Assembly (NCBI GenBank): GCA_964353335.1
Contig: CAYGVI010000003.1
Span: forward strand, 99,308-123,307
DNA: 24,000 nt
Direction of reading: 5' to 3'
Source of the DNA: an uncultured Methanosarcinales archaeon
Lineage (GTDB): Archaea; Nanobdellota; Nanobdellia; Woesearchaeales; ARS49
The notes beneath the pieces were generated by a model. It saw nothing but the letters and a program-made list of their open reading frames with translations, was not told the origin of the DNA and did no database searches. Positions 4,912-23,800 of the stretch are shown here, piece after piece (positions within the stretch are counted from its first letter, which is position 1; every line of letters starts with the position of its first letter). The translations under genes and the position numbers were made by a program.

Positions 4912-4917
4912 CCCTCT

Positions 4918-5114: not shown

Positions 5115-5122
5115 TTTATAAA
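5115..5122 (+). promoter_or_regulatory. TATA box (TTTATAAA) for the leaderless small membrane protein gene
   Basis: Centre 5118.5, with ATG 5145 lying 26.5 nt downstream. Confidence 0.55.
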
Positions 5123-5144
5123 CATCCTGCAGTTAACCAAGAAT

Positions 5145-6179: not shown

Positions 6180-6181
6180 TT

Positions 6182-7048: not shown

Positions 7049-7083
7049 ATACAATCAACACTCTCTCTCCTATTATATTAATT

Positions 7084-7887: not shown

Positions 7888-7908
7888 GCGTTTTGGCAGT
7901 AAGGCAGG

Positions 7909-7918
7909 ATTTATAAAT
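7909..7918. promoter_or_regulatory. Palindromic TATA box (ATTTATAAAT) serving divergent leaderless genes
   Basis: The centre at 7913.5 is exactly 26.5 nt from ATG 7887 (minus strand) and 26.5 nt from ATG 7940 (plus strand). Confidence 0.6.
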
Positions 7919-7939
7919 CTACGCATCTCCTCGCACGCC

Positions 7940-8374: not shown

Positions 8375-10076
8375 AATCGCTGACATTTTCTTTGAAATGG
8401 CTGACCTGCTGGACATGCAGGGAGTGCAGTGGAAGCCCCGCGCTTACAGGAACGCGGCAAGGGCAGTTGATTCTAGCGGCGATATTGAGATAATCCTGAA
8501 AAAAGGCGGAAAAAAAGCCCTGATGGAAATCCAGGGAGTGGGCGAAGCATTGGCTGACAAGATAATAGAGTATGTTCAGACAGGAAAAATAAAGGAATAC
8601 GAGCGCCTGACAGGAAAACTGCCAGAAGGAGTGCACGCAATGATGCACATAATGGGCGTTGGTCCGAAAAAAGCCTGGCGCCTGTACAAGGAGCTCGGCA
8701 TCAAGGGCGTTGACCAGCTTGAAAAGGCGTGCAAAAAAGGAAAACTAAGAACTCACAAGGGCTTTGGCGCGAAAACAGAGGAAGACATACTCAAAGGCAT
8801 AGCAACACTGAGAACAGGTCAGGAAAGAATCCTCCTCGGAAGGGCATGGGTTATCAGCCAGGAAATAATTAACCGCCTAAAAAAGCTGAAGCAAATCAGT
8901 GCAATAGAACCAGCTGGCTCATTAAGGAGAATGCAGGAAACAATCGGAGACATAGACATCCTTGTTATCTCGTCAAATCCTGAAATCGTAATGAACACAT
9001 TCACCACAATGCCAGATGTTGTCCGCGTGCTTGCAAAAGGGCAGACAAAGAGCTCTGTCCAGTTGAAAGAGGGCGTTAGCGCAGATGTCCGCGTGCTTGA
9101 GCCAAAGAGCTTTGGAGCTGCACTGCAATACTTTACAGGAAACAAGGAGCATAATATTGCTGTGCGCCAGATTGCAATAAAGAAAGGCTTGAAGCTCAGC
9201 GAGTATGGCTTGTTCAGGAAAAACAAGCAGATAGCAGGAAAAACAGAGGAAGAAGTTTACAAAAAGCTCGGCCTTGAATGGATTCCTCCTGAATTAAGGC
9301 AGAATGCAGGCGAAATAGAAGCTGCAAAAAACAAAAGCCTTCCCAAGCTTGTCAGCTATGACTCAATCAGGGGAGATTTGCACATGCATACAGGTTATAG
9401 CGACGGTGTAAACACCCCTGAGGAAATGATTCAGGCAGCGATAAAGATGGGCTATGAGTACGTTGCAATCACAGACCACAGCAAAAGCGAGCACATTGCC
9501 CACGGAATGGAGGAAAAGCGGCTCGCAAAGTACATCGCGGAAATAAACAAGCTGAAAAACAAGTATGCAGATAAAATTGCAGTGCTTTGCGGCTCAGAAG
9601 TCAACATTATGAATGACGGCTCGCTTGATTATGCCAAAAAAATCCTCAACCAGCTTGACTGGGTTGTGGGCTCAGTGCATTCAGGATTCAAAACACCAAA
9701 AGATGTTATGACCAAGCGCATCATCACTGCGATTGAAAGCGGAAACATGAATGTGCTTGCCCATCCGACAGGCAGGCTAATAGGCATAAGAAACCCCTAT
9801 GAAGTCGACATCAATAAGGTAATCAAAACTGCCAAGGAAAACAATGTTGCCTTGGAAATAAACGCATTCCCAGCAAGGCTTGACCTGAAAGACACGCACA
9901 TAAGAATGGCTGTTGAGGCAGGCGCAAAGCTCTGCATTGGCACTGATTCGCACAACACAAACCATCTTCCCCTGATGAAGTTCGGCATTGCACAGGCAAG
10001 GCGGGGCTGGGCAGGGGAAAAAGACATAATTAACACTTTGCCGTGGAAGAAGTTAGAAAAGTATATAAGGCGATAA
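8361..10076 (+). CDS. polX: Family X DNA polymerase with a C-terminal PHP phosphoesterase domain
   Basis: The N-terminal part is helix-hairpin-helix-like (IQGVGEALADKI, IMGVGPKKAWRLY). The Pol-beta nucleotidyltransferase motif is GSLRRMQETIGDIDILV. PHP motifs are HMHTGYSDG, ITDHS and GTDSH. ATG 8361 is preferred over the TTG at 8352. It overlaps the Nudix gene by 14 nt. Confidence 0.9.
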   Translation: MKNSEIADIFFEMADLLDMQGVQWKPRAYRNAARAVDSSGDIEIILKKGGKKALMEIQGVGEALADKIIEYVQTGKIKEYERLTGKLPEGVHAMMHIMGVGPKKAWRLYKELGIKGVDQLEKACKKGKLRTHKGFGAKTEEDILKGIATLRTGQERILLGRAWVISQEIINRLKKLKQISAIEPAGSLRRMQETIGDIDILVISSNPEIVMNTFTTMPDVVRVLAKGQTKSSVQLKEGVSADVRVLEPKSFGAALQYFTGNKEHNIAVRQIAIKKGLKLSEYGLFRKNKQIAGKTEEEVYKKLGLEWIPPELRQNAGEIEAAKNKSLPKLVSYDSIRGDLHMHTGYSDGVNTPEEMIQAAIKMGYEYVAITDHSKSEHIAHGMEEKRLAKYIAEINKLKNKYADKIAVLCGSEVNIMNDGSLDYAKKILNQLDWVVGSVHSGFKTPKDVMTKRIITAIESGNMNVLAHPTGRLIGIRNPYEVDINKVIKTAKENNVALEINAFPARLDLKDTHIRMAVEAGAKLCIGTDSHNTNHLPLMKFGIAQARRGWAGEKDIINTLPWKKLEKYIRR

Positions 10077-10092
10077 ACAAAGAGGATAAAAA

Positions 10093-10365
10093 ATGACCTT
10101 CAAAGAAGTTCTAAAGCAAAAAGTGCCTGCGCATTTGCAGCAGACTCCTGAATTCCCGATAATCATGAAAATGATTCAGGGCGAAAAAATAACAGGCGCT
10201 GAAAGCCTGAGGCACTGGCTTAATGTCGAGATGCAAAAGTGCAAAAACGACCTCAAGGAGTTTGACCAGGCAGGCTCAACAATGAACCGCAAGCGCGTGC
10301 GCTGCGCAGACAAAATGCAGCTCCTTAACCTCGTCCAGGACAAGATTTTACCTTACGTGAAATAA
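10093..10365 (+). CDS. Hypothetical small protein (90 aa)
   Basis: ATG preceded by GAGGAT 7 nt upstream. The stop overlaps the next ATG (TAATG at 10363-10367), which suggests operon membership. No motif recognised. Confidence 0.55.
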   Translation: MTFKEVLKQKVPAHLQQTPEFPIIMKMIQGEKITGAESLRHWLNVEMQKCKNDLKEFDQAGSTMNRKRVRCADKMQLLNLVQDKILPYVK

Positions 10366-10706
10366 TGATTAAGAACATCACCAAAGACAAAATTCTCGCG
10401 CAAAACTGCAATATTTGCAGGAATTTTCTCACAAGAGGGCTTGGATTGATGTTCAGGAAGAAAATGACACCGACAGTCCTTGCCTTCAGAAAGCAAAACA
10501 CAGCTGCAATCCACACTTATTTTGTAAAACACTACCTTGACATCCTCTTCCTGAATGACCAGTGGGAAGTCATAGACCTCATAGAAGGCCTGCAGCCAAA
10601 GAACTTCTACACCCCAAAGCATAAGGCGATGTTTGTCGTCGAGCTGCCAGAAGGCGCAATAGCAAAATCAAAGACTTCAGTAGGCGATGTGATAAACTTT
10701 AAATAG
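10365..10706 (+). CDS. DUF192 family protein
   Basis: 113 aa. GLMFRKK...IHTYFVKHYLDILFLNDQWEVIDL...P.....AMFVVELPEG...VGDVI follows the pattern I recall for DUF192 (GLM.r....gMlF....MknT.ipLDi.f.d..g.V..i..l.P......yvlE...G). Confidence 0.7.
   Translation: MIKNITKDKILAQNCNICRNFLTRGLGLMFRKKMTPTVLAFRKQNTAAIHTYFVKHYLDILFLNDQWEVIDLIEGLQPKNFYTPKHKAMFVVELPEGAIAKSKTSVGDVINFK
10698..10705 (+). promoter_or_regulatory. TATA box (TTTAAATA) for the tRNA-Trp gene, embedded in the last codons of the DUF192 gene
   Basis: Centre 10701.5, which is 30.5 nt upstream of the mature tRNA 5' end at 10732. Confidence 0.5.
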
Positions 10707-10731
10707 GGCACAAGAAGTTATTCTCAATAAC

Positions 10732-10806
10732 GGGAGTGTAGTATAACTTGGCTTAGTATAGGGGCCTCCAGAGCCTCGGATCGGGGTTCAAATCCCTGCA
10801 CTCCCA
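10732..10806 (+). tRNA. tRNA-Trp (anticodon CCA), intron-less, 3' CCA not encoded
   Basis: Hand-folded cloverleaf. Acceptor GGGAGTG pairs with CACTCCC (7 Watson-Crick pairs). D stem GTAT/GTAT has 2 WC and 2 GU pairs, with D loop AACTTGGCTTA. Anticodon stem GGGGC/GCCTC has loop CTCCAGA (CCA at 10768-10770). The variable loop is 4 nt. T stem CGGGG/CCCTG has loop TTCAAAT. The discriminator is A. Confidence 0.9.
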
Positions 10807-10807
10807 C

Positions 10808-11464
10808 TTATTTTTTAATGACTTCTGTTAAGCACCCATTCAAGTTTTTTACAATCTGTGCCAGATGACGTTTCTTTTTAGGATGCTTAAAACCGATAAA
10901 TTGGGCGTAATTAGCAATGGAATCCCTATAAATGGTAAGATGATACGAAAAGAATTGCCTGCATTTGTAAGGCCCGCGTAGGTTCGAGTTAATCCCGAAT
11001 TCACCCAATACCTTTTGAACCTGTTTAAGCCCTTTTTCATTGACCATATTGAGCACAATCCTTTTTTGCGGCACAGAAACATGCGCTTCATCGTCGAAAA
11101 AAGCCTGAAGCCACGCAGTTCTTACTTCACTGCTTGCAGAAATGACTTCTTCTGGAATAAACCATGTGAAAGACTTTAATGCCCCTAATCTTGTAACCAT
11201 TTCATAAATCCATTTAGAAGAAACTTCGTATTCATATTTCTTCTTTGGCACCACTTTTCTGTCAAATTCTTTTTTGACGTCATCAGTAAATTGTTTAATC
11301 AAAGCAGGCTCGGTATTTACGTATCGCACATACCATCTTGTTTGGGTTTTCTTCTTTCTTGGATGTGAAATCAGCTCTTTCTCAGACCGCCTTTGCTGGT
11401 AAACACAAGAATAACCGTCACCAGCAATATGCGCCACAATCCTTGCAAGCTCAGGGCTTATCAT
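10808..11464 (-). CDS. Free-standing double-motif LAGLIDADG-family homing endonuclease-like protein
   Basis: Motif 1 is LARIVAHIAGDGYS and motif 2 is AWLQAFFDDEAHVS, both keeping acidic residues at the catalytic positions. The C-terminal half is basic. The track start 11467 is TTG. ATG 11464 lies 25.5 nt from a TATA (rc of ctttataa, 11486-11493). The stop codon is 1 nt from the tRNA 3' end. Sampled GC is about 32% against about 50% in the flanks. Confidence 0.85.
   Translation of the reverse strand: MISPELARIVAHIAGDGYSCVYQQRRSEKELISHPRKKKTQTRWYVRYVNTEPALIKQFTDDVKKEFDRKVVPKKKYEYEVSSKWIYEMVTRLGALKSFTWFIPEEVISASSEVRTAWLQAFFDDEAHVSVPQKRIVLNMVNEKGLKQVQKVLGEFGINSNLRGPYKCRQFFSYHLTIYRDSIANYAQFIGFKHPKKKRHLAQIVKNLNGCLTEVIKK
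10811..10816 (+). terminator. Oligo-T tract downstream of the tRNA (archaeal-type terminator)
   Basis: TTTTTT starts 5 nt after the tRNA 3' end. The same bases encode the C-terminal Lys-Lys of the convergent LAGLIDADG gene. Confidence 0.5.
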
Positions 11465-11560
11465 CAAATTCCAAGAAATCTCCTGCTTTATAACCCGTGC
11501 GCGACCGTGTCCAGTGACCAGTGTGTTTTATCGACGAGAAAATGTCGGAAAGTTTACGGT

Positions 11561-14032
11561 TCACTCAAGCCCGATCAGCTTCTTTGCCTGCTTTCTGAAG
11601 AATATCAATGCAAGCACGATAAGAATCAATATTGAGTATCCAAGCACTCGTCCTGCGTTTCTCTTCCACCAGGTTGGAATCCTGTCTGGCTCAACAACAA
11701 GCTCAACAGGGTTGCTCCTGACTATTCCGCCTTTGCCGTCTTCTGCTGTGAACACAACGCGCTCTGTTCCATACCAGCCGTAATGCGGTGTAAGAATTGC
11801 GTTGCTGCCTGAGAACATTACCTCAACATTGCTTGCCTGAGTCGAACTAAATGTCAAAACGTCATTGTCAGGGTCCTTGAAATACTGGCCCAAATCAAGA
11901 GTTTGCTGTGTGTCCTGCTTCCATATCTGCGCAGGGATTCCGATTGTAGGAGTCCTGTTGACCTGCACTATAATCGCGATTGAAATAAGCGCTATCAACG
12001 CAACAATGATGAATATCGTGGGCAAAACCCATCTGCCAAGCCTGCTTTCCTTCTGCGCTTTCTTGCCTGGCTTTCCGACTATTGCGAATTCGCCGAGGTT
12101 CTCTGCATCTGCAACAAAGTAAACATACTTGTCATCTGTGCTGACAGGCTCTGCGACTATGCTGTTCCACCTGTCTGTGCCAAGGTGGTAAAGCCTTACT
12201 GAGCTTGGCGCAACATTGTGCCTGAGCATCCAGGATTTCCTGACCTTGAACCTTACGCGCACATCAGAAACCATGTCTTTTTCAACATTGGCGTCAACCA
12301 CAAATGTCTGGTAGACGCAGTCTGAATATGGCGGCACAGTTGGCTTGCAGCGCTTTGCTGTCATAACCAGCTTCTCGACGACAGTGTTGAGCTTGAATGT
12401 GACTTCAGCAAGCCCTTTCTTCCACTTGGTCTCAAAGTGCAATACCTTGTTGGCAAGTGCAAGCTTCCAGCGCCTGTGCGCAAACTTGTTCCTTCTTATG
12501 CGGTGCAAAATAAGTATGATAAACAGTACAATTATTCCAGCGATGACCGTCTTAGCGCTGAGCAGCTCGCTGTAAGTCAATCCCAGTGCGATAACAGCCA
12601 AAACAATGAGCAGCAAAACAAACTTCAAAAGCCTCTTTGCAGGTATCCTGAATCCCTTTACAACTTCATCCTTTGATATGACGAGGTTTTCCCTGCGAAG
12701 CTGCTTTTCGTAGTCCTTCTGCGCCCTCTGCCTTTCTTTTTCAATTTCCTTCTGGCGCCTTTCCTCTTCCTTTGCCTCTTCCTCTTCCTCGCGCTTCTTC
12801 TGCTCTGCAAGCGCTTTCTTCTCGTCTTCGCGGGCTTTCTTCTTTGCTTCCTTCTCAATCCTGCGCTGTTCCTTCAAGCGCGCCCTTTCAGCCCTTCTTT
12901 CTGCCCTTCTTGCCTTTGACTCAGGCGAATTATAGCTCTTTATGCCCATTACGACAAGAACCAAAAGGACAATGAGCACGATTATTGCGAGGATTGTGTA
13001 AATAAGGTATTCTGCGAACAATTTGTCAGCGAAAGTCGGGTTCTTCAAAACAATGGTCAATTCCTTGGTGTATTCCTTTCCTGTTGCCTCAACTATTGCT
13101 GTAAGCACGAGCGGATAGCTTCCCTGCGGAGTTGTTTCTGTCGGCTGGATGACAAGCTTTACGTTTTCGCTGTCGCGCGCTGCAATCGTGACCTGCTCAG
13201 GCTGGACTGTGATAAATGTGGCTCCTTCAAGGCGCAAAAGGTAAGTTGTGCTCCTGTCGCCTGTGTTGACAATCTCAAGCTGTGCTTCCTGTGGCTCGAC
13301 AACAGCGCGTATCTTGTTGACGCCTGTTGCAATCTCAGGAATGTCTGAATCATTTATGTGCAAATACATCTCTATTTCTGCTGCAATTTTGCTTTTCTCA
13401 GTTGAAACGCGCAATACAGGAGTGAAGTCGCCTGACAATGTGCAGTCCTGTGAATGCACTGTGATTGTGATTTGCGCGTTTTCGCGCGGCTCAAGTGTGA
13501 GTGTTTCGTCGCTAATCGCGGTTTCCTGAGGCGAACCGATGACGTTCAATTTGTATGTCTCTGCGAAATCAGCAGGGTTTGAAAGCGTAAAGTGAAAGTC
13601 TGCAGGCTCGCAGGGCATAATTCCCTTTGAAAACACTACAGGGGTAAGCAAAAGGTTGTTTGGAGTCTGGACAATTATTTCCTGCGAGAGCATAAGCTCA
13701 AGCTCATTTGTGAGTATTGATACATCAAGCACCTCATCCTCTGCGTCGCACGGGATGCTGATAAATTCCTGCACAATCTGGCTCTGGCCAGGGTTAAGCG
13801 CGAATGATTCAGGCGAGAAAGTAACCCATTCCTTTGCATTTCCCTCTGCCACAAGCTCATAAACGCTTGGAACGTCGCCTGAGTTGGCGACAGTTATCTG
13901 CCCCTCTGCAGGGCTGCATGCGAATGTGAGAATCCTTCCTGTCCCTGCTGCTGTGAAATCCTCTGCTGCAAGAACTGAAGATATTACAAGCAGGAAAACC
14001 GCGAACCATGTCCAAACGTTTCTGCTTGTCAT
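11561..14032 (-). CDS. Large mosaic multipass cell-surface protein (823 aa)
   Basis: ATG 14032 gives MTSRNVWTWFAVFLLVISSVLAAEDF (signal peptide). Three repeats follow with the pattern ..NxGD....Y.L......(W)(V/I)T..P....L.P......V.. (CARDB/COG1470-like). Next come a TM segment, about 100 aa of KE-rich helix and a TM hairpin. A segment then matches the PGF-pre-PGF pattern (VRFKVRKSWMLRHNVAPSSVRLYHLGTDRWNSIVAEPVSTDDKYVYFVADAENLGEFAIVG). After another TM comes YFKDPDNDVLTFS...VVFTAEDGKGG (cadherin/Ig-like), then a final TM. The track start 14074 is GTG. Confidence 0.8.
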   Translation of the reverse strand: MTSRNVWTWFAVFLLVISSVLAAEDFTAAGTGRILTFACSPAEGQITVANSGDVPSVYELVAEGNAKEWVTFSPESFALNPGQSQIVQEFISIPCDAEDEVLDVSILTNELELMLSQEIIVQTPNNLLLTPVVFSKGIMPCEPADFHFTLSNPADFAETYKLNVIGSPQETAISDETLTLEPRENAQITITVHSQDCTLSGDFTPVLRVSTEKSKIAAEIEMYLHINDSDIPEIATGVNKIRAVVEPQEAQLEIVNTGDRSTTYLLRLEGATFITVQPEQVTIAARDSENVKLVIQPTETTPQGSYPLVLTAIVEATGKEYTKELTIVLKNPTFADKLFAEYLIYTILAIIVLIVLLVLVVMGIKSYNSPESKARRAERRAERARLKEQRRIEKEAKKKAREDEKKALAEQKKREEEEEAKEEERRQKEIEKERQRAQKDYEKQLRRENLVISKDEVVKGFRIPAKRLLKFVLLLIVLAVIALGLTYSELLSAKTVIAGIIVLFIILILHRIRRNKFAHRRWKLALANKVLHFETKWKKGLAEVTFKLNTVVEKLVMTAKRCKPTVPPYSDCVYQTFVVDANVEKDMVSDVRVRFKVRKSWMLRHNVAPSSVRLYHLGTDRWNSIVAEPVSTDDKYVYFVADAENLGEFAIVGKPGKKAQKESRLGRWVLPTIFIIVALIALISIAIIVQVNRTPTIGIPAQIWKQDTQQTLDLGQYFKDPDNDVLTFSSTQASNVEVMFSGSNAILTPHYGWYGTERVVFTAEDGKGGIVRSNPVELVVEPDRIPTWWKRNAGRVLGYSILILIVLALIFFRKQAKKLIGLE

Positions 14033-14100
14033 TTTGTCTGCTCCGGGTGTGCCATGTGGTTCAGCGCAGGGCACAGGAGAAAAAATGAAAACTCACAAGC

Positions 14101-15375
14101 TTAGTAATAAGCCTGCGGTTGCTGATCTTGCTGTGGCTGTGCCTCTTCTCCCTCGTCACCCTTCAGGCGGCTGAATCCGATAACCAGCCCGAGTATAACA
14201 AGCAAAACCACGAGCACGATAAGGCCCCACTCGAGGACTGACCTTGCTGCGCTCTTGCCGCCCTTTGCGACATTTGCTGTCAGCTGGATGTTCTCAAGTG
14301 ATTGTCCGTTTGTGCTTATGGCTGCAGTCACAACCTGTGCTCCGACAGGCGCATCGCTTCCTGCTGTGACAAAGACATAGACAGTTTCTGTCTTGCCTGC
14401 GTCAAGCACGAGTGTGCTGGTCGGAGTTATCTTGACTGTTGCCCAATCGCCTGCCTCAACAGCTACGGTGTAGGACTTGCTTGTCCTTCCGGAGTTTGTG
14501 ATTGTAAGCGGGAAAACCGCAGTGCCGCCCTGTGCGACGTTTTCAAGCTGGCTTCCAACCGATATGGTTGTCTTTGCCTTTGCTGTAGTGGCTGCTGAGC
14601 CGTCTTCGCAGGTGTCGTCCGCAAGGACTTCCATCTGCTTGACAGCGCGCTCCTTCTTGAATCCGTCGTCGTATGAGACTTCAACCTCGACGTCATAGAC
14701 GCCTGGCTTTGCGCACTTTGGTATCCTCAAATAGAGCTCCTCAGTCTCCTTTTCCTCGTCGTTGTTCGGGACTTCATCAATGTAGTCCGAAGCTGTTACG
14801 CCGAGCTGGGGGATGCTTGCTGTAACCTTGACATCAGTTTCGTCCTTTTCTCCCAGGTTCCTGACACGGATTACTCCGAGCAAGGCGCTTCCTGCCTTGA
14901 TTTTTGTGTCCGGGTTGAATGAGATGTCACGGATCATCATTCCGTGGCGCGGGACGTCAATCTTGATGTTGTAATTCTGGACGAGTTCCTCTGCGTTGCG
15001 GTCTGAGAATATCAGGCGCAGCTTGTAGGAGTCCTCTTCAAAGAATGTGTGTACTGGTATTGTGAGTGTCTTGCGGTATGTGACATTTGCGTCTGCGTCA
15101 AAAGTGCTTGTTGAGTCTGATGCAGGCATAATGTCGCTGTGCTCATCGCCGCTGAAGAACGCCTGGATTTCCATGTCGTTGACGTCCTGAGAAGGCGTGA
15201 AAACAACCTTGACTTCTATCTTGTCGCCGCGGAGGACGTCCAAGAGGTTTGATGCGTCTGCGCGCATCTCAATGTCATCAACTTTGACCTGCTCAACTGT
15301 TATTGGCAGTGCAAATGCTGTGGTTGCCAGTGCTATTGCGAGCACAAGCATCAATGCGATTTTGAGTGGATTCAT
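14101..15375 (-). CDS. S-layer-like / CARDB-type surface protein with a C-terminal TM anchor
   Basis: ATG 15375 gives MNPLKIALMLVLAIALATTAFA (signal peptide); the track start 15381 is TTG. It has beta-rich repeats with CARDB-like signatures (IRVRNLGEKDETDVKVTASIP; FPLTITNSGRTSKSYTVAVEAGDWATVKITP). The C-terminus is LIVLVVLLVILGLVIGF plus an acidic/Gln-rich tail. It has its own TATA (15431-15438), a GGGGGT SD and a T-rich tract after the stop. Confidence 0.8.
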   Translation of the reverse strand: MNPLKIALMLVLAIALATTAFALPITVEQVKVDDIEMRADASNLLDVLRGDKIEVKVVFTPSQDVNDMEIQAFFSGDEHSDIMPASDSTSTFDADANVTYRKTLTIPVHTFFEEDSYKLRLIFSDRNAEELVQNYNIKIDVPRHGMMIRDISFNPDTKIKAGSALLGVIRVRNLGEKDETDVKVTASIPQLGVTASDYIDEVPNNDEEKETEELYLRIPKCAKPGVYDVEVEVSYDDGFKKERAVKQMEVLADDTCEDGSAATTAKAKTTISVGSQLENVAQGGTAVFPLTITNSGRTSKSYTVAVEAGDWATVKITPTSTLVLDAGKTETVYVFVTAGSDAPVGAQVVTAAISTNGQSLENIQLTANVAKGGKSAARSVLEWGLIVLVVLLVILGLVIGFSRLKGDEGEEAQPQQDQQPQAYY

Positions 15376-15430
15376 CTTCAATATACCCCCATTGTTTTTG
15401 TGGTTCCTGATGATTTGGAAGTTCAGCCCG

Positions 15431-15438
15431 TTTATAAA
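15431..15438 (-). promoter_or_regulatory. TATA box (TTTATAAA) plus leader with GGGGGT Shine-Dalgarno for the S-layer-like gene
   Basis: The TATA centre at 15434.5 is about 59 nt upstream of ATG 15375. The SD GGGGGT (rc of 15385-15390) lies 9 nt before the ATG. Confidence 0.5.
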
Positions 15439-15482
15439 GGTTTCGCTTTTTTACCTATTCTGCAGTAGTGAAACACTATCAT

Positions 15483-16280
15483 CTACTGATAGTCAATTAC
15501 CTCGATTTCACGGTGCACTATGCGCTGTGCGTCCTCGTTGTAAACCTGCAGCCTTACCGAATAGGTTCCCTCACCCATTTCCTCAGGCAGGTCAAGCAGG
15601 ACTGTGCTTGTGACTTTCTCGCCTGCGTCAACATCCATCGGGCCTATTGTTGCCCTGACAGAGATGTCCGGTATCATTATGATGACTTTTGTGTTGTCAA
15701 GGTCGTGCGTTCCCTTGTTCTGAAAGGTTATGCGCAGCGCCACCTGGTCGCCAGGCAGCTCCTCGTACGGGTTGTGAAGGAAAATATTGTGTATGAAAAT
15801 CTGGAGTGACTCATCGCTTTTAGGCGAAGGTGATGGTGAAGGTGTTGGCACCGGAACAGGGCAAGTGCCTGTCTGTTCGCATGAAACAGGAGGAATTACC
15901 GGAGGCCATTCAGGAAGCTCTGGCTGTTCGTCAGGCCCCTGAGGGTTTCCAGGAATGTCTCCGCCAATTGGCCCGAAATCGTCGTCAAAAGGATCCCAGA
16001 TGCCGTCGCCGGATACGCTGTCGTCCTGCCCGCCTGGGCCTGTATTTTCAGGAACAAAGCCTGTGTCCTGGTCAGGGGTAAATCCGCCGTTCACATCGTT
16101 TGTAAAGCCGATGCTGTTGTCGTTTGTAAAGCCGGAATCGTCCATCGGGTCTATTCCGAAATCAAAATCAGGGGTGAACCCGCCGTCAAACATTTCTGCT
16201 GTTGCGAGAAATGGCACTGCGATTACAACAAGCGCTGCAAGCGCGCTGAACATTGCCGTATTCCATTGTCTCGCGTTCAT
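15483..16280 (-). CDS. Secreted acidic protein: GF(T/V)(P/N)(D/E) repeats, Pro-rich linker, C-terminal CARDB-like beta-sandwich
   Basis: Signal/anchor FSALAALVVIAVPFLATA. The repeats are GGFTPD, SGFTND, IGFTND, GGFTPD and TGFVPE. A linker PVPVPTPSPSPSPK follows. The C-terminus is ALRITFQNKGTHDLDNTKVIIMIPD...GTYSVRLQVYNED. Confidence 0.75.
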   Translation of the reverse strand: MNARQWNTAMFSALAALVVIAVPFLATAEMFDGGFTPDFDFGIDPMDDSGFTNDNSIGFTNDVNGGFTPDQDTGFVPENTGPGGQDDSVSGDGIWDPFDDDFGPIGGDIPGNPQGPDEQPELPEWPPVIPPVSCEQTGTCPVPVPTPSPSPSPKSDESLQIFIHNIFLHNPYEELPGDQVALRITFQNKGTHDLDNTKVIIMIPDISVRATIGPMDVDAGEKVTSTVLLDLPEEMGEGTYSVRLQVYNEDAQRIVHREIEVIDYQ

Positions 16281-16317
16281 TTTCAGGTCCTATAATAATA
16301 TTGTAAAATGAAAAAAA

Positions 16318-17079
16318 TTATTTTTCAACTGCCTTAGCGTAGACAGGGGTCTTTGCAATAACAAGCCTTACTGCAGCCGGCATTTCCTTGAAGTAAACGC
16401 CCTGCTTGTAATCATTGCCTTGCTTGCCCGCATAGCTCTGGTGGTTCTCCTTTGTGAAAGACTCACCGCAGCGTACGTCGACAAAGTCGCCTGCGCCAAG
16501 CATCCTGCCGATATCGTCGGTGCTGCGCAGTATCTTGAATCCGCGCTGCTTGACGTCTTCTGCGCTGATTACTTTCTCAGGCATCCTTTCATACTGCTGT
16601 GCTGAGTTTGCAACAAGCTCAAGAACGTCACGCTGGCTGAAGTATTTGTGCTTTCCTGCCTTTGAATTCAGGTCAGTTGCAAGAGCCTTTGTGTTGACGT
16701 TTGTGATGAGCTCGCGGCCCTTGCTTGCAGTGCCGCTCTTCTCATCCCTGCGCAGGTTGAGGCAGACATAAACATTGCCTTCTCCCTTGTTAAGGCCGTA
16801 ATGCACTATTTCCTGCATGCGTGACCTTGCCTTTTCAACGTCCTTTTCGTGGCCCTTGATGTCAGTGCCCTTGTAGTCTGTAAGCTGGATTGTGTACTTG
16901 GCTGCCTGCCTGAGCTCTTCGAATCCAAGCTGGACATTGCCGAATTTTTCAACGTCAGCAAGCAGTGACTCGAGGGTGCTGGCGGTGTTTTGCTGTGGGA
17001 CTACGCATCCTGCAGCTGCCGCAACTCCGAGAGCTCCAATTGTCTTGAGAAAATCACGTCTTGTTGGTATATGTTGCAT
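16318..17079 (-). CDS. Tat-signal lipoprotein of unknown function
   Basis: The N-terminus is MQHIPTRRDFLKTIGALGVAAAAGC. TRRDFLK is a perfect twin-arginine consensus (S/T-R-R-x-F-L-K), followed by an h-region and the lipobox AAGC. The SD GGGGGT lies 6 nt before the ATG. The mature domain is not recognised. Confidence 0.75.
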   Translation of the reverse strand: MQHIPTRRDFLKTIGALGVAAAAGCVVPQQNTASTLESLLADVEKFGNVQLGFEELRQAAKYTIQLTDYKGTDIKGHEKDVEKARSRMQEIVHYGLNKGEGNVYVCLNLRRDEKSGTASKGRELITNVNTKALATDLNSKAGKHKYFSQRDVLELVANSAQQYERMPEKVISAEDVKQRGFKILRSTDDIGRMLGAGDFVDVRCGESFTKENHQSYAGKQGNDYKQGVYFKEMPAAVRLVIAKTPVYAKAVEK

Positions 17080-17170
17080 TTTATTACCCCCTGTGTTAAA
17101 TACTGTTGGTTTGACACTACTATTGAGTGGGTATTTTTAAAGCTTCGGGTTTATGGGCGGGTTAAGAACA

Positions 17171-19150
17171 TTACTTGCCGTAAATAACTATTCCCGGAGT
17201 AACTATCCATTCGGTTTTGTCGCCGTGAAGCACTGCGCCGTCAACCTTGAAGTCTATCTTGACATCCTTGGTGTTCAGAAGGCGTACTCCTGCACCGACT
17301 TGCCCGCCGAAGCGTGTTTCGTCATCTTTTGTGCCTGTGAACTCGCTGTCAAGCCTTTGAACAAGTCCAAGAGCCTCAATATATCCCCTTGTTCCTGCAG
17401 CGTCAAAGTGCCAGCGGACTCCTGCGTCGCCGTAAATGTTGTTTTGCGAGAGGAATTCCCCGAGTTTTTCATTAAGTGTTGACATTCCTGCCTCGACTGA
17501 GAAGCTGTCGTTAAGCATAAGCCTTCCCTGCAGCTGTGTCATGAGCTTTGTGAAGTCGCCAGTGTATTCGTCTCCTGCATCGCCTTTCACATCGCCCTTG
17601 AGCCCTGCTGCCTGGAATATCACGAAGTTGTGCCTGTTTGCAACACCAACATCGTCATCATCAATAGGTGCCTGCGTGAGGCCTAATTTCAGGTAGCCTC
17701 CAAATCCCTTGTTTCCAAATGTGTAATTGCTTCCGTTTTCAGGCTTGATTGCGAAGTCCCTGTTTTCAGCCATTACTCCGCCCTCAAGGAATCCGTAGAA
17801 TCCCTTGCTCAGGACAGGATAAGTGTGAAGCCCAAGCTGGACGCGTTCTCCGTATCCTGCAATGTCTCCTTCGTCAAACTTCTGCACCTGGTCAAATCCA
17901 TTCAAGTACAGGTCAAGCCCTGTGGCTTTGCCCAGCTCAAGTATTCCCTTGGCTGATGCGCTCACTCCTGTAGTATCATTGTCAAAGATTCCCTTTACAT
18001 ACAGTATTCCCTTAAGCGAAGGGTCTTCTCCGGTGATTATCGGCTTGTAATCAGCAGATGCAGGCGCTGCCTGTTGCGCAGGTGCCGGTGAAGTCATTCC
18101 CTTTAATGCCCTGTAAGCTTCAGTAGGTTCTGGCTGTGTGTAAACTATTGTGTTCTCCCTTGCCTTTGCTTCTGCTGCTTTTCTTTCAGCTTCCTTTCTC
18201 TGCCTGTCTGCTTCAGCTGCCTTTCTTTGCTTTTCTGCTTCTGCGAGCTTCTGCTTTTCTGCTTCAACTGCATTTCTTGCGGCATCTACTTCAGCTGCCT
18301 TTCTTTCAGCAGCTACTTTCCTTGCTGCTTCACGCAGGCTCTCCAGGTTTGCTTCAGTCTCCTGATTTTCCTTTGCTTGAGTGTAAGCTTCTGAAGCTCT
18401 GTCCTGTGATGGCCTTTGCCCTGCATAAGGCGCTGGGCCTGTCTGCGGAGCAGTTGGCTTTTCAGCGACAGGAGGCACTTCAGGACCTTTTGTCTGCTGC
18501 TGAGTTTTGTCAGCAAGTGATCTTGAGTCAGGAACTTTTACTGGCGTAGTTGTAACCGGCACAGGCTTAATGTTTTCCTGCGTTACAACATCTGGGTTTT
18601 TCGGCAAACTTCTATAGAAAAGATTGTATCCTGCCCATAATACCGGAGCAAGTGCCAAAGCAGCGATAGCCGCAATGTAAACAGTGCGAACTCTTCCAGC
18701 TGCCCTGCTTGGAACTGTGTGGAAATAGTCTCCTATCCTGCTGAGCAATCCTTTCTTTTCAGTGCTGCCAAGCATTCCTGCATAACTTACAGGATTTGTG
18801 TGGACAACTTCTGTAGGCTGTGCTTCAACAACAGCTTCGATACTTTCAGGTTTTGCAAGGCTGTCTGCAAGCGTTGTATAAACATTTTGTGCGCGGCTCC
18901 TGAGGTTTTCATAGTCAACCTTTGCGCGCTTTTCCTTGGACATCTTGATGACATTGTCGTAAAGCTTTACAGCAGAAACAAGGTCGTCATACTTTGCATT
19001 CTTTCCGTTTGCGCGGTGCTCGAGAATTTGGAGTTTGTTTTCAGTGTTGTAGCTGAGTATTCCCAAATCTTTGATTTCAAGATTGCTATCTGCTGCCTGT
19101 TTTATCTCGTCTTTAGAAAAGTTATGCCGTTGAAATTGGTAGTTTTCCAT
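17171..19150 (-). CDS. Membrane-anchored protein with TolA-like layout and a porin-like C-terminal domain
   Basis: 659 aa. A cytoplasmic N-domain of about 150 aa is followed by a TM (VYIAAIAALALAPVLWAGYNLFY, about aa 155-178). Next are a Pro-rich segment (aa 180-250) and a KAAE/AEKQ helix (aa 262-332). The last roughly 290 aa contain at least 12 segments of alternating hydrophobic/polar residues (e.g. DVKIDFKVDGAVLH, IYGDAGVRWHFD, RFGGQVGAGVRLL, EWIVTPGIVIYGK). TATA at 19196-19203; SD AGGGGT 8 nt before the ATG. Confidence 0.75.
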   Translation of the reverse strand: MENYQFQRHNFSKDEIKQAADSNLEIKDLGILSYNTENKLQILEHRANGKNAKYDDLVSAVKLYDNVIKMSKEKRAKVDYENLRSRAQNVYTTLADSLAKPESIEAVVEAQPTEVVHTNPVSYAGMLGSTEKKGLLSRIGDYFHTVPSRAAGRVRTVYIAAIAALALAPVLWAGYNLFYRSLPKNPDVVTQENIKPVPVTTTPVKVPDSRSLADKTQQQTKGPEVPPVAEKPTAPQTGPAPYAGQRPSQDRASEAYTQAKENQETEANLESLREAARKVAAERKAAEVDAARNAVEAEKQKLAEAEKQRKAAEADRQRKEAERKAAEAKARENTIVYTQPEPTEAYRALKGMTSPAPAQQAAPASADYKPIITGEDPSLKGILYVKGIFDNDTTGVSASAKGILELGKATGLDLYLNGFDQVQKFDEGDIAGYGERVQLGLHTYPVLSKGFYGFLEGGVMAENRDFAIKPENGSNYTFGNKGFGGYLKLGLTQAPIDDDDVGVANRHNFVIFQAAGLKGDVKGDAGDEYTGDFTKLMTQLQGRLMLNDSFSVEAGMSTLNEKLGEFLSQNNIYGDAGVRWHFDAAGTRGYIEALGLVQRLDSEFTGTKDDETRFGGQVGAGVRLLNTKDVKIDFKVDGAVLHGDKTEWIVTPGIVIYGK

Positions 19151-19251
19151 GTCAGGTTACCCCTATTATTAGTTGGCAGGGAATATCGCCGGCTGTTTAT
19201 AAATCTTCGTATTTATCACTACTTTACAGGAGTAAAGCATTTGTTCGCAAT

Positions 19252-19259
19252 CTTTTTAA
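19252..19259 (+). promoter_or_regulatory. Weak TATA-like box (CTTTTTAA) for the leaderless geranylgeranyl reductase gene
   Basis: Centre 19255.5, with ATG 19282 lying 26.5 nt downstream. Confidence 0.4.
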
Positions 19260-19281
19260 CACAGCGCCAGCTCGCAAGCCC

Positions 19282-20367
19282 ATGCGCGTCGCTATCGTCG
19301 GGGCAGGACCGTCAGGAAGCTATGTAGGCTTCCTCCTTTCAAAAGCCGGTCACGATGTCACAATCTATGAAGACCACGAAAAAATAGGCGAGCCAATAGC
19401 GTGCACAGGCATCGTGACAAAAGCGCTTTTCGACCTTGTTGAATACAGCAAAGACTACATTATCAACGAGCTTGACGGCGTTGACATAATCGGGCCAAAA
19501 GGTGAAAAGCTCCGAATCCCGCTGAAAGAATACGTGCTTTGCAGGAAAAAGTTTGACAATTATCTTGCAAACAAAGCAGGAAATGCAGGTGCAAAAATAC
19601 TGCTCAGCCACAGGTACACCGGAAGGGAATGCAACACCCTAATTTTCAGGCATAACGGACAAATAGTCAAAAAAGAAACAGACATTCTCATCGGCGCAGA
19701 CGGTCCTTTAAGCAAAGTTGCAGAAACTTCAGGGCTTGGTAAAAACAAAAACTTTTACGTCGGCCAGCAGGCGACAATCAAGGCAAAATACGACCAGAAA
19801 ATATTCACAGTCTGGTTCGGCAGCATTGCCCCTGGATTTTTCGCGTGGAGCGTGCCTGAAAATTCAGAGTACTCGCGCATTGGCGTCGCGACAACAAAAG
19901 ACAAGAACTGCGCACAATGCTTCCAGAGACTGATGAAAATGTCAAAAGGAAAAATCACAGCAAGGCAGGCAGCACCAATCCCGTTGTACAACCATAAAAG
20001 AAAAGTGCAGAACAACAGCACTTTCCTTGTCGGAGACGCAGCCGGATTTGTAAAAGACACAACAGGTGGTGGAATCATCACAGGAATGCTCTCAAGCAAA
20101 GCCCTTGCTGAAAGCATAATCCGCAAAACAAGCTACGAAAAGAACCTCAAGAAGCTGAGAAAAGAGCTTTGGCTTCACAGCAAGCTCAGGAGGATGCTTA
20201 ACAGATTCTCAGACAATGATTACAGAAGGCTTATCAGGCTGATGTCAAACCAGAAAGTCAGGCGTATATTATATAGCCATCCGAGGGAGTATCCTTCAAG
20301 ATTCCTTCTGAAGCTCCTGCTCGCAGAGCCGCGGCTCATTTATTTCGCAAAGCACGCGTTTGCATAA
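19282..20367 (+). CDS. Geranylgeranyl reductase family FAD-dependent oxidoreductase
   Basis: The N-terminal dinucleotide fold is VAIVGAGPSGSYVGFLLSKAGHDVTIYE. Family motifs are LIGADGPLSKVA and FLVGDAAGFVKDTTGGGIITGM. Confidence 0.9.
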   Translation: MRVAIVGAGPSGSYVGFLLSKAGHDVTIYEDHEKIGEPIACTGIVTKALFDLVEYSKDYIINELDGVDIIGPKGEKLRIPLKEYVLCRKKFDNYLANKAGNAGAKILLSHRYTGRECNTLIFRHNGQIVKKETDILIGADGPLSKVAETSGLGKNKNFYVGQQATIKAKYDQKIFTVWFGSIAPGFFAWSVPENSEYSRIGVATTKDKNCAQCFQRLMKMSKGKITARQAAPIPLYNHKRKVQNNSTFLVGDAAGFVKDTTGGGIITGMLSSKALAESIIRKTSYEKNLKKLRKELWLHSKLRRMLNRFSDNDYRRLIRLMSNQKVRRILYSHPREYPSRFLLKLLLAEPRLIYFAKHAFA

Positions 20368-20421
20368 TCCCGCGAAAGCTTTTTAAGCAAACCACATAAA
20401 CAGCGGGCACAGGGGGATTGC

Positions 20422-23400
20422 ATGCCTGAAGACGACGAACTTTCAGTTGATTTTGGAAAAGTTGGCGACTGGTTCAAGAGAAAAAAGAAGCCCGAAGCAG
20501 AGCCAACGCCAGAACACCAGCCTTCATTGCTCGCTGACAAGCACGCAGCAGTTCCACACGAGCAGCCAAAAGAGCATTCTGAAGCAAAGCACACTGAAAA
20601 AGATGATGAAATCAGCATTGACTTTTCAAAAATAAAGTCCTGGTTCACAAAAAAGGAGCATTCAGGAAAAGATGAAGGCAAAGAAGACCTCGGATTTGAT
20701 TTCAGCAAGCCGTGGGCATGGATAAAAGCCCACCCCGTCCTGATAATACTCGCAGTCCTCCTGATAATGCAGTTCGTTCCAAACAGGATTGATATTGGCG
20801 GCAAGGACTGGTACATGCCCTGGGGCGGGGTAAGCATGCGCCTAAGGAGCGAAAGCCTGCCAATGACAGACGGCTGGGCAGCGAACCATGTCACAACCCT
20901 GCTCAAGAACCAGCTGGTTGATGCGATTAACAAGCAGTATCCCAACCTTCCTGACGAAAGAAAGCAAAAGCTTGTGAATGATGAATGGGACAAGGTATAC
21001 AAGGAGCAGAAAGCCCAGATTGACCCGCAAATAACTGCTGTCAACCAGCAGATAAAGGAGTTCTGGATGTATGAAGCAGACGGCGTGAAATACACTTACA
21101 TGCCTGACATTGACCCTTACACATACCTAAGATATGCCAGAAACCTGCTTGAGAAAGGCACTTATGCTGACGAAGTGAGGGATGGCACATTAATCGACAA
21201 CCACATGGCCGCGCCCTTGGGTGGCGGGGTAAGCCGCGAGCTGCAGCCATACACTCTCGCAGTGCAGTACAAGATACTGCACATCTTCAGCCCGAAGATT
21301 GACCTTATGCAGGCAGCTTGTTATTTCCCCATAATATTCATCCTGCTCTCGCTGATTCCTGCGTTCTTCATCGGCAGGCGCTTTGCAGGAATGTCAGGCG
21401 GAATCATAACTGCAACAATGGTGGCAATACTGCCTTCAATTATTGTCAGGACAGGCTGGGGCCACGCAGACACTGACGCTTACAACATTTTCTTCCCGCT
21501 CCTGTTGACCTGGCTTTACACGCTGATGATTGATGCAGATGACACCAAAAAGATTATTGGATTGGGCGCATTGTCAGGGCTTGTCACAGGAATTTACGCA
21601 TTTGCCTGGCCTGGCGGCTGGTGGTATGTATTTGACTTCATACTCGCTGCATTCGGAATACTGGTCATAAGCGAAATCGCAAGAAATATCAAGCACAGAC
21701 AGAAGCTGATTGAAATAATAAAGAAGCGCGCAATCCTGTTAATCACTTACCTGGCAGTTTCAGGAATATTTGTAAGCCTGTTTAGAAGCACCACTGAGTT
21801 TTTCAATGCCCCAATGGCGCCATTGGGATTCACAATCATCAAGGCAGCTGCGCATGTAAGCCTCTGGCCAAATGTTTACACAACTGTCGCAGAGCTTAAT
21901 CCCACAGACCTTAACGGCGTTATCGGCTCTGTCGGAGGGTGGCTGTTCTTCTGGATTGCAGTTGCAGGAATGGCAATGCTCCTGATAAAGCGCTCAAACA
22001 ATGAGTGGAAGTTTGACCTCAAGTATGCACCCTTGTTTGTGCTCTGGTTCATCGCAACAATTTACGCGAGCCTTAAGGGAGTGCGTTTCACATTGCTTAT
22101 GGCTCCTGCATTCACAGTCGTGTTCGGAATTGCCATTGGCAGGATTTACAACTGGCTGGTCAGAATCAGCATAAAAGATTTGCACTTGAATGAAATAGTG
22201 GCTCATGCATTGATAATTGTAATGGTGGTGCTGATGCTTTCAGGCCAGGCAAAAAGCGCCTATAACTCCTCAGGAAGCGACATTCCGATAATGAATGACG
22301 CCTGGTGGAGCACACTCACTGCGATAAAGGCAGACTCAAAGCCTGACGCGATAATCAACTCATGGTGGGACTTTGGCCACCACTTCAAGTATATCGCAGA
22401 CCGCGCGGTCACATTTGACGGCGCATCACAAAACACGCCAATGGCGCACTGGATTGGAAGGACTCTGGCAACTAACAATGAAACAGAGGCAGTGGGCATT
22501 TTGAGGATGCTTGACTGCGGCTCCTACTCCGCATTCGATGTGATTAATGCCCAGTTCAATGACCCTGTAAAATCAGTCAATCTTCTCCGCGAAATTATCG
22601 TGGTTGACCGCAAGTCAGCGCTTGCAATACTCGCAAAGGAAGGGGTTAATGAGCAGGAACAGTTATTGAAACTCACACACTGCGACCCGCCAGAAGACTA
22701 CTTCATAGCATCAGGAGACATGATTGGAAAGTCAGGCGTCTGGAGCCACTTTGGCTTCTGGGACTTTGAAAAAGCAAAGCTGTGGACGATTCTGAAGAAC
22801 CAGCCAGAGGAAACCGCAGTGCAGTCAATGATGAACGAGTGGAACTACACCCGCGAACAGGCAGAGCAGGCTTACTTGGATGTGCAGGCATTGGGCAGTG
22901 AAGGCGATGCGAATGCATGGATTTCACCATGGCTTGGCATACTTGGCGAGGCTGTTGACTGCTCAACCCAGAACGACCTGATTGGATGCGGAAATGGTTT
23001 CGTAATCAACACGTCCAACAATGACGCGCGCATCAATACAGGCCAGGGGGTTGGCAAGCCAAAGGTCGTCGTCCAGCTGACAGAAAAAGGCGGATTCTCT
23101 GAAATCAAGTTTAATGACTCAAATACCGCGGTTGGAGTGCTTCTCTATCCGACAGGGCCAGGCGCTTACAAGGCGGTGTTAGGCTCTCCAGAGCTTTTGA
23201 CAAGCATATTTGCCCGCCTTTACTTCCTTGAAGGCCACGGCTTGCAGCACTTCACTGCGTTCAGCCAGCAGAGGGAATTAACAGGCGGCGGAATTTACAC
23301 TTACAAGGTCAACTGGGCAGGCAATGCAACCAAAGTTTTCAGCGGCTTTGAAGCCCTGAAGGCTGCGAAAGAAGCGAACACAACAGAGAAGAAAGTTGAA

Positions 23401-23748: not shown

Positions 23749-23800
23749 TGAGATTTCTTATCCATAACCTTAATAAACCAATTGTGGCTCATTTCCGTCT

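Follow-up and report, generated by a model that had tools for sequence, protein, structure and literature searches.

We describe an envelope locus of a Woesearchaeote in which five genes keep their order across related contigs and in which recombinational exchange between strains is confined to the extracytoplasmic parts of the products. The locus occupies 11561-19150 on the minus strand of the window, by which we mean the whole 24,000-nucleotide stretch of DNA that was analysed, and consists of five consecutive co-directional open reading frames (ORFs), named g5 to g1 in transcription order. The first, g5, encodes a protein with a predicted membrane anchor, a long stalk and a C-terminal domain modelled with high confidence as a 14-stranded porin-type beta-barrel. 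The original prediction for this DNA saw in the run a cell-surface module that might mediate attachment to, or exchange with, a host cell. Envelope gene clusters, surface-layer (S-layer)-like proteins, lipoproteins exported by the twin-arginine (Tat) pathway and hypervariable surface islands are all of kinds already known. What is new is a confidently predicted OmpG/FadL-like barrel family restricted to Woesearchaeota, the joining of this barrel to a stalk and a helix anchor, and cassette-like exchange inside a deeply conserved locus. A full-text literature search of limited coverage found no published description of the barrel family.

A conserved envelope locus

All five products bear an export signal or transmembrane segments, which bears out the proposal that every gene of this run encodes an exported or membrane protein. 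On the minus strand, g5 (17171-19150; 659 residues) encodes the helix-anchored, stalked barrel protein; g4 (16318-17079; 253 residues) a Tat-exported lipoprotein in a variable slot; g3 (15483-16280; 265 residues) a secreted acidic FG-repeat protein with a C-terminal immunoglobulin (Ig)-like NPCBM_assoc domain; g2 (14101-15375, full ORF to 15381) an S-layer-like protein with a signal peptide, Ig-like domains and a C-terminal transmembrane anchor; and g1 (11561-14032, full ORF to 14074) a multipass membrane protein with extracellular Ig-like, PGF-pre-PGF and Big_9 domains. To judge by the gene calls of related contigs, g2 and g1 truly begin at the ATG codons at 15375 and 14032, giving proteins of 424 and 823 residues. 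Searches of Pfam, NCBIfam, PDB, PHROG and PADLOC assigned no member to an unrelated, well-known function.

The window derives from a Woesearchaeote (Nanoarchaeia, DPANN), since it carries AglB, a geranylgeranyl reductase family gene (GGR) and archaeal-type TATA boxes, and since homologues of g2 are named Woesearchaeota. The order of barrel protein, lipoprotein, acidic FG-repeat Ig protein, S-layer-like protein and multipass protein recurs in 11 related contigs, which rules out an absence of synteny. It is kept from near-identical strains down to a g2 identity of 46%, so that the conserved envelope module proposed earlier holds over that range. Because the order recurs in 11 other contigs, the clustering of the five genes is more than chance. 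Amongst the close strains (related loci carry the handles L001 to L012), L003 has g5, g4 and g3 together with GGR; L001 reads GGR, g5, a leucine-rich repeat (LRR) gene, a lipoprotein gene, g3, g2, g1, DUF192 and PolX; and L004 reads AglB, GGR, g5, an LRR gene, a lipoprotein gene, g3, g2, g1, LAGLIDADG and PolX. The distant loci L005-L009 and L011 have GGR divergent from the barrel gene, behind which, contig permitting, stand a lipoprotein of 220-280 residues, a g3 homologue, g2 and g1; on their far side are AglB-FKBP and GT2, with DUF2304 where the locus extends. GGR adjoins the barrel gene, in divergent orientation, in L001-L009 and L011.

Two further loci mark the limits of this arrangement. 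L010, on an 875-kb contig and with a g2 identity of 46%, carries AglB-FKBP, a barrel of 338 residues, a lipoprotein, a g3 with GDFGG repeats, g2 and a g1 of 785 residues. L012, with a g2 identity of 38%, has only GGR, g2 and a g1-like gene. The pair g2-g1 is thus a wide core, to which the trio of barrel, lipoprotein and g3 is joined in a large subclade. Between the window and L006/L009 the identities are 70-80% for GGR, 61-71% for AglB, 73-76% for g2 (the most conserved gene of the block), 52-63% for g1, 48-50% for g3 and 28-37% for the g5 barrel; none is detectable for the slot lipoprotein.

A predicted stalked, porin-type beta-barrel protein

The N-terminal domain of g5 (residues 1-155; 18686-19150, minus strand, as for the other parts of g5) is predicted to be cytoplasmic, as it lacks a signal peptide and basic residues precede the membrane helix. 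The domain (MENYRF...) is conserved in many family members and is 85-99% identical among close strains; it gave no Pfam or PDB match. A Kyte-Doolittle scan places a single transmembrane helix at residues 156-175 (18626-18685), and there follows a linker of 202 residues (176-377; 18020-18625) that is 35-73% identical between strains. The linker is rich in alanine (18%), glutamate (11%), proline (10%) and lysine (9%), and includes Pro-rich segments and an Ala/Glu/Lys/Arg-rich segment of about 70 residues, predicted to be helical by composition only; within it, 27-bp tandem repeats lie at 18185-18318. Helix and linker agree with the membrane-anchored stalk that had been proposed for this protein. 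Homology of the stalk to TolA was considered and rejected, as the match to TIGR02794 (25.9 bits, cut-off 59.45) covers the low-complexity linker only. Like the TolA and TonB spacers, g5 has a single N-terminal transmembrane anchor followed by a Pro-rich and Ala/Glu/Lys-rich stretch, a likeness that is compositional only; unlike those proteins it has no TolA/TonB C-terminal domain, and no TolQR or ExbBD genes lie nearby.

The C-terminal domain (residues 378-659; 17174-18019) comprises about 280 residues, is rich in glycine (15.6%) and contains no cysteine. AlphaFold2 (AF2), run on an alignment of 22 sequences, predicts 14 antiparallel strands of 13-20 residues each with short connections between them (predicted local distance difference test, pLDDT, 91.5; predicted template-modelling score, pTM, 0.85). 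This model replaces an earlier run on 3 sequences, which gave a pLDDT of 61.7 and weak Foldseek matches. A Foldseek search of the PDB with the 22-sequence model returned 207 matches below 1e-3, and all of the 50 listed are outer-membrane barrels (one of the 50 is itself a deposited model). The best are the 14-stranded OmpG (E 1.2e-8, template-modelling score 0.56-0.59), CymA and FadL, which together span E values of 1e-8 to 1e-7, template-modelling scores of 0.5-0.59 and sequence identities of 8-11%; next come autotransporter barrels, OprD-family (Occ) channels and the trimeric porins MOMP and OmpC. The beta-barrel-like head that had been read from the sequence is therefore upheld as a high-confidence model of a porin-type barrel resembling outer-membrane channels.

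Sequence comparisons point the same way at lower strength. The domain scores 24.9-25.7 bits against the Pfam family OMP_b-brl (PF13505), under the gathering cut-off of 28.7. The same model matches 6 of the 22 barrel family members at E<=0.01, the best at 5.5e-8, which by arithmetic corresponds to about 34 bits, so that some members probably pass the cut-off; one member each matches DUF481 and OprF. A search of PDB sequences with the family profile found only an invasin barrel and OmpX, at non-significant E values of 0.15-0.17. That the head belongs to the porin-type fold class is well supported as a prediction; its membership of a bacterial outer-membrane protein family and its residence in a membrane are not established.

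The family is small. When the C-terminal domain was searched exhaustively with HMMER against 1.84 billion protein clusters, only 28 representatives came up, none of them a typical bacterial protein, and a word-indexed profile search with the barrel alignment A2 gave no matches. When one genome per GTDB species was scanned with the g5 barrel, a single locus was found, L004, on a 96.9-kb contig of a Candidatus Nanoarchaeia archaeon. The layout of helix, stalk and barrel is common to most family members. In g5 no signal peptide stands directly ahead of the barrel, its place being taken by the N-terminal domain, helix and stalk. The barrel of L010 bears only a signal peptide, of the cleavable type (family hidden Markov model E 3e-11; Pfam OMP_b-brl faint), which indicates that the barrel is exported as such.

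The most conserved motifs of the barrel family (FGN, KLGLT, D-x-D-F-G-V-G in the sole long loop, and G-D-x-T-G-D) are acidic or Gly-rich rather than hydrophobic strands, which suggests a conserved ion-binding or constriction site. Many distant members (P0007, P0009-P0012, P0014, P0023, P0025 and P0026) show a lipobox-like L-S-C-G-K/N after an internal hydrophobic helix, which lies 170-390 residues from the N-terminus behind a large N-domain. The g5 of the window, unlike these, has no cysteine anywhere.

Cassette exchange between strains

A blastn alignment of the window with L004 shows 94.7% identity across 8333-15995 and 92% across 18643-24000. In the segment between (15996-18642, minus strand), which covers the g3 repeats, the lipoprotein slot and the g5 ectodomain, the alignment is reduced to 3 islands of about 40-100 bp. 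The break against L001 spans 16020-17163. The flanks of the replaced segment are 92-98% identical between strains. On the left, the breakpoint lies within g3, where its acidic repeats meet the Ig domain (16020 for L001, 15995 for L004); on the right, the one against L004 lies within g5, directly past the transmembrane helix. Recombinational exchange of cassettes is confined to the extracytoplasmic parts of the products.

Compared domain by domain, the barrels fall into two allele classes with 42% identity between them: the window, L001 and L003 have class A, and L002, L004 and P0004 have class B. The g5 of L004 has an N-terminal domain 85.5% identical to that of the window and a barrel that is 42% identical to the window and 90% identical to L002; in the N-terminal domain, L002 shares only about 51-57% identity with L004 and with the window, and the GGR genes of L002 and the window share 79%. 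Since L004 joins a window-like N-terminal domain with an L002-like barrel, barrel alleles move across lineages.

The slot behind g5 varies in content from strain to strain. In the window and L003 it holds the Tat lipoprotein g4, which scores above the cut-off in both Pfam PF10518 (23.2 against 22.7) and TIGR01409 (27.5 against 16.7), carries the motif TRRDFLK, and ends its hydrophobic region in a lipobox-like cysteine (GVAAAAGC|VVP, with AAAGC at the bar). The slot proteins of relatives have comparable ends (LSAGC, LAGC, LGAC, LGGC, LGC). The earlier description of g4 as a Tat lipoprotein agrees with these features, lipidation being predicted. Unrelated Sec or Tat lipoproteins take its place in L001, L004-L009 and L011. 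In L001 and L004 the slot encodes a protein with transmembrane, coiled-coil and LRR parts together with a Sec lipoprotein, the two lipoproteins being 28% alike. In L002 a coiled-coil N-terminal part is fused to a lipoprotein C-terminal domain, next to a g4 homologue of 64% identity. The slot genes are mosaics of common pieces. The possibility that g4 is a divergent member of the other slot-lipoprotein family was rejected, as hhalign covers the signal peptide alone (58% probability, 23 columns); the mature domains are accordingly taken to be unrelated.

Ahead of the slot lies a leader or promoter island of about 40 bp (17111-17152, minus strand), which is 100% identical in L001 and 97.6% identical in L004, though the ORFs behind it are unrelated to g4. 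In the g5 linker, 43 bp at 18097-18139, encoding YTQPEPTEAYRAL, are 88% identical to the 3′ end of the L001 LRR gene (3195-3237). This LRR gene is absent from the window, and the stretch is likely to be a recombination scar left by removal or exchange of an LRR cassette.

At the other end of the segment, the acidic D/F/G repeats of g3 (about residues 29-93; 16002-16196, minus strand) are hypervariable, with a unit and copy number that differ in every strain. They are built on Phe-Gly cores (DFGG, GFSD, DIDFGGYS x6, GDFGGFDAGAFSG; in the window, L001, L004, L006 and L009-L011) and make up a disordered, strongly acidic, FG-rich segment. The whole protein has a signal peptide and contains 17% Asp+Glu against 3.8% Lys+Arg. 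Its former description as an acidic GF-repeat/CARDB protein holds for the acidity and the GF repeats; CARDB scores under its cut-off, and it is NPCBM_assoc that passes (26.9 bits, cut-off 24.4). Homologues of 35-80% identity stand at the same position in L001, L002, L004, L006, L009, L010 and L011.

Two other readings were considered and rejected. A diversity-generating retroelement is not indicated, as no reverse transcriptase domain was found among the window ORFs (no dedicated search for template and variable repeats was made) and the divergence, 42% over whole domains, is not adenine-specific. A defence-system or viral origin finds no PADLOC match, and the sole PHROG match is weak and of low complexity.

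The putative wall proteins

The g2 protein, read earlier as S-layer-like, resembles the NCBIfam model NF033506, ‘putative S-layer protein’ (86.5 bits, 1.6e-24), and the curated cut-off of 110 is not reached; the alignment covers positions 251-616 of the 627 in the model, so that its first 250 positions are absent. NF033506 represents the putative S-layer protein of Pace- and Woesearchaeota (PACE-CTERM-PROT), and a lattice has been demonstrated for no member. A signal peptide and a C-terminal transmembrane helix are present in g2. It has at least 233 homologues, which, where named, belong to Candidatus Woesearchaeota, Nanoarchaeota or DPANN archaea; one of them, 38% identical, is itself named ‘putative S-layer protein’.

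Behind g2 stands g1, with a signal peptide and 5 further hydrophobic segments that part three Ig-like domains, a Lys/Glu-rich segment, PGF-pre-PGF (57 bits for PGF_pre_PGF, cut-off 28) and Big_9. At this position it is retained as a single ORF of 785-839 residues in L006, L010 and L011 and of 716 residues in L012. Searches of PDB sequences with g1, g2 and g4 gave no informative match.

Discussion

We think it probable that this is a core Woesearchaeal cell-envelope locus, made up of a constant wall part and a variable, outward-facing part whose g5 barrel is inserted into a second lipid layer. The constant part (the C-terminal Ig domain of g3, together with g2 and g1) would most likely build and anchor a protein wall. 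The variable part (the g5 ectodomain, the lipoprotein, the LRR protein of some strains and the acidic repeats of g3) faces outward, and g5 and the slot proteins would form the contact face. The anatomy of g5 is a confident prediction, in which the cytoplasmic N-terminal domain and the helix fix the protein in the cell's own membrane and the Pro-rich, helical stalk of about 200 residues holds the OmpG/FadL-like barrel away from the cell; by our estimate, about 70 helical and about 90 Pro-rich residues could reach over tens of nanometres. The barrel may then enter a lipid layer other than the membrane of its own cell, most likely the membrane of a partner, and serve there as a tethered channel for the uptake of metabolites or lipids, whilst the adjoining variable lipoprotein or LRR protein would provide recognition of the partner. 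We favour this placement because a barrel of such width would harm the cell if it sat in its own energised membrane, the stalk could cross a wall, LRR binding modules occur in the slot and only the external parts diversify. According to an excerpt of a preprint (bioRxiv 10.1101/2024.05.20.594898), known DPANN systems do have dedicated intercellular conduits, of different make and host origin.

The more specific proposal, that a stalked 14-stranded porin inserted into a partner membrane forms a conduit for lipids or metabolites and that swapped barrel, lipoprotein and LRR cassettes set partner specificity, seems to us unlikely in this complete form. A role of the locus products in host attachment or exchange, as the original prediction had it, may be considered. 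It is now better grounded, with indirect support in that it is just the outward-facing parts that are replaced between strains and that LRR cassettes occupy the slot in some of them.

Several points weigh against inserting the barrel into any membrane, or against tying it to a partner. The barrel family lacks the C-terminal aromatic signal of bacterial barrels and ends in its place with a basic tail, ...[YWF][FLG]G followed by 1-5 basic residues (IVIYGK, LYFGGKKK, VYLGGSRRKR). The two alternating faces of the strands, taken over their whole length, have mean Kyte-Doolittle values of 0.6 and -0.9, which makes one face moderately hydrophobic and does not prove a lipid-exposed belt; the faces were assigned by the alternation of residues along the sequence. 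The connections are short at both ends of the barrel and no more variable than the strands (entropy 1.98 on the far side, 2.21 on the near side and 2.02 in the strands), in which they differ from the loops that bacterial porins expose. We know of no beta-barrel insertase in archaea. The barrel is 97-100% identical between the window and L001, yet the lipoprotein beside it is replaced by an unrelated one, and a strict pairing of barrel and lipoprotein is unsupported because the same barrel allele occurs with unrelated lipoproteins. Finally, escape from viruses would predict the same hypervariability equally well.

This last explanation, one of the main rivals, we judge rather unlikely. It holds that the exposed barrel, lipoprotein, LRR protein and repeats have diversified to escape viruses and that the barrel serves the porosity of the wall or the uptake of solutes, with no relation to a host. 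Flexible surface-protein islands in other microbes are attributed to phage pressure, and here too whole ectodomains are replaced between near-identical strains, with allele classes common across lineages, and the conserved flanks and the promoter island offer anchors for homologous recombination. As in the hypervariable cell-surface genomic islands known from free-living microbes, identity drops sharply only in genes for exposed proteins between near-identical genomes; unlike them, the segment is small (2.6 kb), lies within a deeply conserved order and has intragenic breakpoints, so that ectodomains alone are swapped. Against viral pressure as the driver stands the absence of PHROG or PADLOC matches of note in the window, and LRR proteins are typically binding modules and not passive targets. 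It leaves unexplained why an archaeon should have a porin-type barrel at all, and it is compatible with the second-lipid-layer reading rather than exclusive of it.

The second lipid layer could instead be the lineage's own outer membrane, g5 being both tether and porin, with its helix in the inner membrane, its stalk across the inter-membrane space and its barrel in the outer membrane, and its neighbour being an outer-membrane lipoprotein; this we consider unlikely. The layout has a parallel in OmpM of diderm Firmicutes and SlpA of Deinococcus, in which, according to excerpts of the papers (PMC10628300; PMC9388160), one chain likewise combines an inner-layer anchor, a stalk and an outer-layer barrel. 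Their anchor is an SLH domain on peptidoglycan, that of g5 a transmembrane helix in the cytoplasmic membrane (no SLH domain was matched in g5 in Pfam or NCBIfam); moreover, the g5 barrel is 14-stranded and hypervariable between strains, and the organism's outer membrane is hypothetical. The L010 homologue is a plain secreted barrel beside a lipoprotein, as in diderm bacteria. The adjoining AglB is fused to an extracytoplasmic FKBP domain, and in the bacterial periplasm isomerases of the FKBP and parvulin types act as chaperones of outer-membrane proteins. Some archaea, the DPANN ARMAN cells among them, are reported to have double membranes, and all of these interact with other organisms (PMC4243693). 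In an excerpt of a 2026 preprint, by contrast, Ignicoccus is the only archaeon currently known with inner and outer membranes. In the loci analysed a single barrel family is seen, and a tiny one (28 representatives); no archaeal insertase of the Omp85/BamA type is known to us; and in a porin-tether with a housekeeping role one would not expect strains to diverge by 58% when their flanks are 92-98% identical.

It is quite doubtful that the barrel spans no bilayer at all and is a soluble or S-layer-embedded head, acting as a shuttle for lipids or other hydrophobic ligands or as a pore unit of the wall. The moderate hydrophobicity of the strand face and the short connections at both ends would suit such a head. 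It would also fit that FadL, which carries hydrophobic molecules, is one of the best structural matches and that the lipid-modifying GGR is a conserved divergent neighbour. All of the 50 listed structural neighbours are membrane barrels, however, sequence matches are to outer-membrane families only, and the lumen of a monomeric 14-stranded barrel is too wide for a packed soluble core. That the five genes form no functional unit and are adjacent through lineage-specific inertia of gene order is very improbable: the genes may be read as several transcripts, given their separate TATA-like boxes and oligo-T tracts, and the neighbourhood from AglB to PolX is syntenic too, so that conservation is not specific to the five genes, but their order survives sequence divergence to 28-50% and changes of neighbours (GGR is absent in L010, and extra genes lie between AglB and GGR in L006, L008 and L011), all products are extracytoplasmic, and barrel, lipoprotein and g3 come and go as a trio (present in L010, absent in L012).

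Of the proteins with known structures, OmpG, CymA and FadL/TodX, monomeric outer-membrane channels of Gram-negative bacteria, are closest to the predicted g5 head in having 14 long antiparallel strands in a closed meander barrel of about 280 residues. They differ in that g5 is archaeal and has an N-terminal domain, a transmembrane helix and a stalk of 200 residues instead of a signal peptide; its barrel is without the FadL hatch, the CymA plug and long external loops, and carries the basic tail, not a terminal aromatic residue. TbpA/TbpB and SusC/SusD are pairs of barrel and surface-lipoprotein genes for nutrient capture, and here as there the two genes are adjacent, evolve fast and are exchanged by recombination. 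Unlike those barrels, that of g5 has no TonB-dependent plug and is not 22-stranded, and its pairing with the lipoprotein is loose.

To our knowledge, the usual description of archaea is that they lack porin-type beta-barrels, and few of the means by which DPANN archaea contact and exploit other cells have been described. The locus raises the question of whether Woesearchaeota have a second lipid layer or reach into that of a partner. A conduit through a partner membrane, if true, would mean that a beta-barrel membrane channel had been found in Archaea for the first time, and would give a molecular handle on how DPANN archaea tap their hosts. The locus offers a small, conserved and clonable candidate set (one barrel, one lipoprotein, one LRR protein and three wall proteins), and the alleles of the strains are a natural series for testing specificity. 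Monomeric 14-stranded barrels such as OmpG refold readily, so the g5 barrel should be testable in vitro, by refolding in liposomes and conductance measurements.

Expression signals and neighbouring genes

GGGGGT or AGGGGT precedes g2, g4 and g5, and had been taken as a shared leader of the module. We infer that the motif would complement the archaeal anti-Shine-Dalgarno sequence with one G-U wobble; since GGGGGA also precedes AglB, it is best read as an ordinary Shine-Dalgarno-like element that marks leadered mRNAs. A module-specific ribosome-binding motif is therefore rejected, and the motif has no bearing on co-regulation. A single operon is not supported either. The intergenic gaps, from g5 to g1, are 91, 37, about 101 and 26-68 bp; TATA-like boxes TTTATAAA stand in the divergent GGR/g5 intergenic region (19196-19203) and upstream of g2 (15431-15438), with a further one, CTTTAAAAATA, ahead of g4 inside the 17111-17152 island; and oligo-T tracts (T7/T6) follow the stop codons of g4 and g2. 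Because of these boxes and tracts between the genes, the five are probably transcribed as several units.

Beyond g5, on the plus strand, GGR (19282-20367) matches TIGR02032 with 177 bits (cut-off 158.8) and is divergent from g5; it is followed by AglB (20422-23748; STT3 1.4e-29), fused to a C-terminal FKBP prolyl isomerase (FKBP_C 2e-19), and by a GT2 gene from about 23801, of which only the first 66 or so codons lie inside the window. The GGR, AglB-FKBP and GT2 genes had been noted beside the block, and family matches confirm them; the neighbourhood is conserved in relatives too, the AglB-FKBP fusion occurring also in L006 and L008-L011. The tie of the five-gene block to AglB is positional only; N-glycosylation sequons are few in the five products (none in g3 and g4, 1 in g2, 2 in g1 and 5 in g5). 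The FKBP part of AglB scores 53.9 against the NCBIfam BamJ model, under its cut-off of 100. In L012 (1-335) AglB is fused to parvulin-type rotamase domains in FKBP's place. With a barrel gene close by, such prolyl isomerases on the wall side are reminiscent of FkpA and SurA.

Past AglB and GT2, L006 (1-4850), L008 (1-2900) and L009 (1-5150) carry DUF2304, GT9 (heptosyltransferase-family), SIS-domain, CTP_transf_like and PfkB kinase genes. This set resembles one for the synthesis and transfer of ADP-heptose, which is unusual for archaea, and may have a role in a wall glycan. On the other side of the block, a free-standing LAGLIDADG endonuclease ORF (10808-11467, minus strand) abuts the 3′ end of tRNA-Trp (10732-10807). 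It varies in presence: L001 has 11 bp in place of 10816-11560, the gene is retained in L004, 98% identical, and missing from L006.

Within 1-8300, to the left of PolX, most ORFs have no Pfam match (701-1564, 1154-1888, 1985-2491, 3337-4446, 4447-4911, 4851-5414, 6182-7054 and 7084-7947). They lie among PLD-like, serine hydrolase and NUDIX genes, and PLDc, Ser_hydrolase, NUDIX and PolX recur in L010 and L011. In L010, a cyclodipeptide synthase (CDPS) gene lies closely downstream of the envelope block, at 14933-15526.

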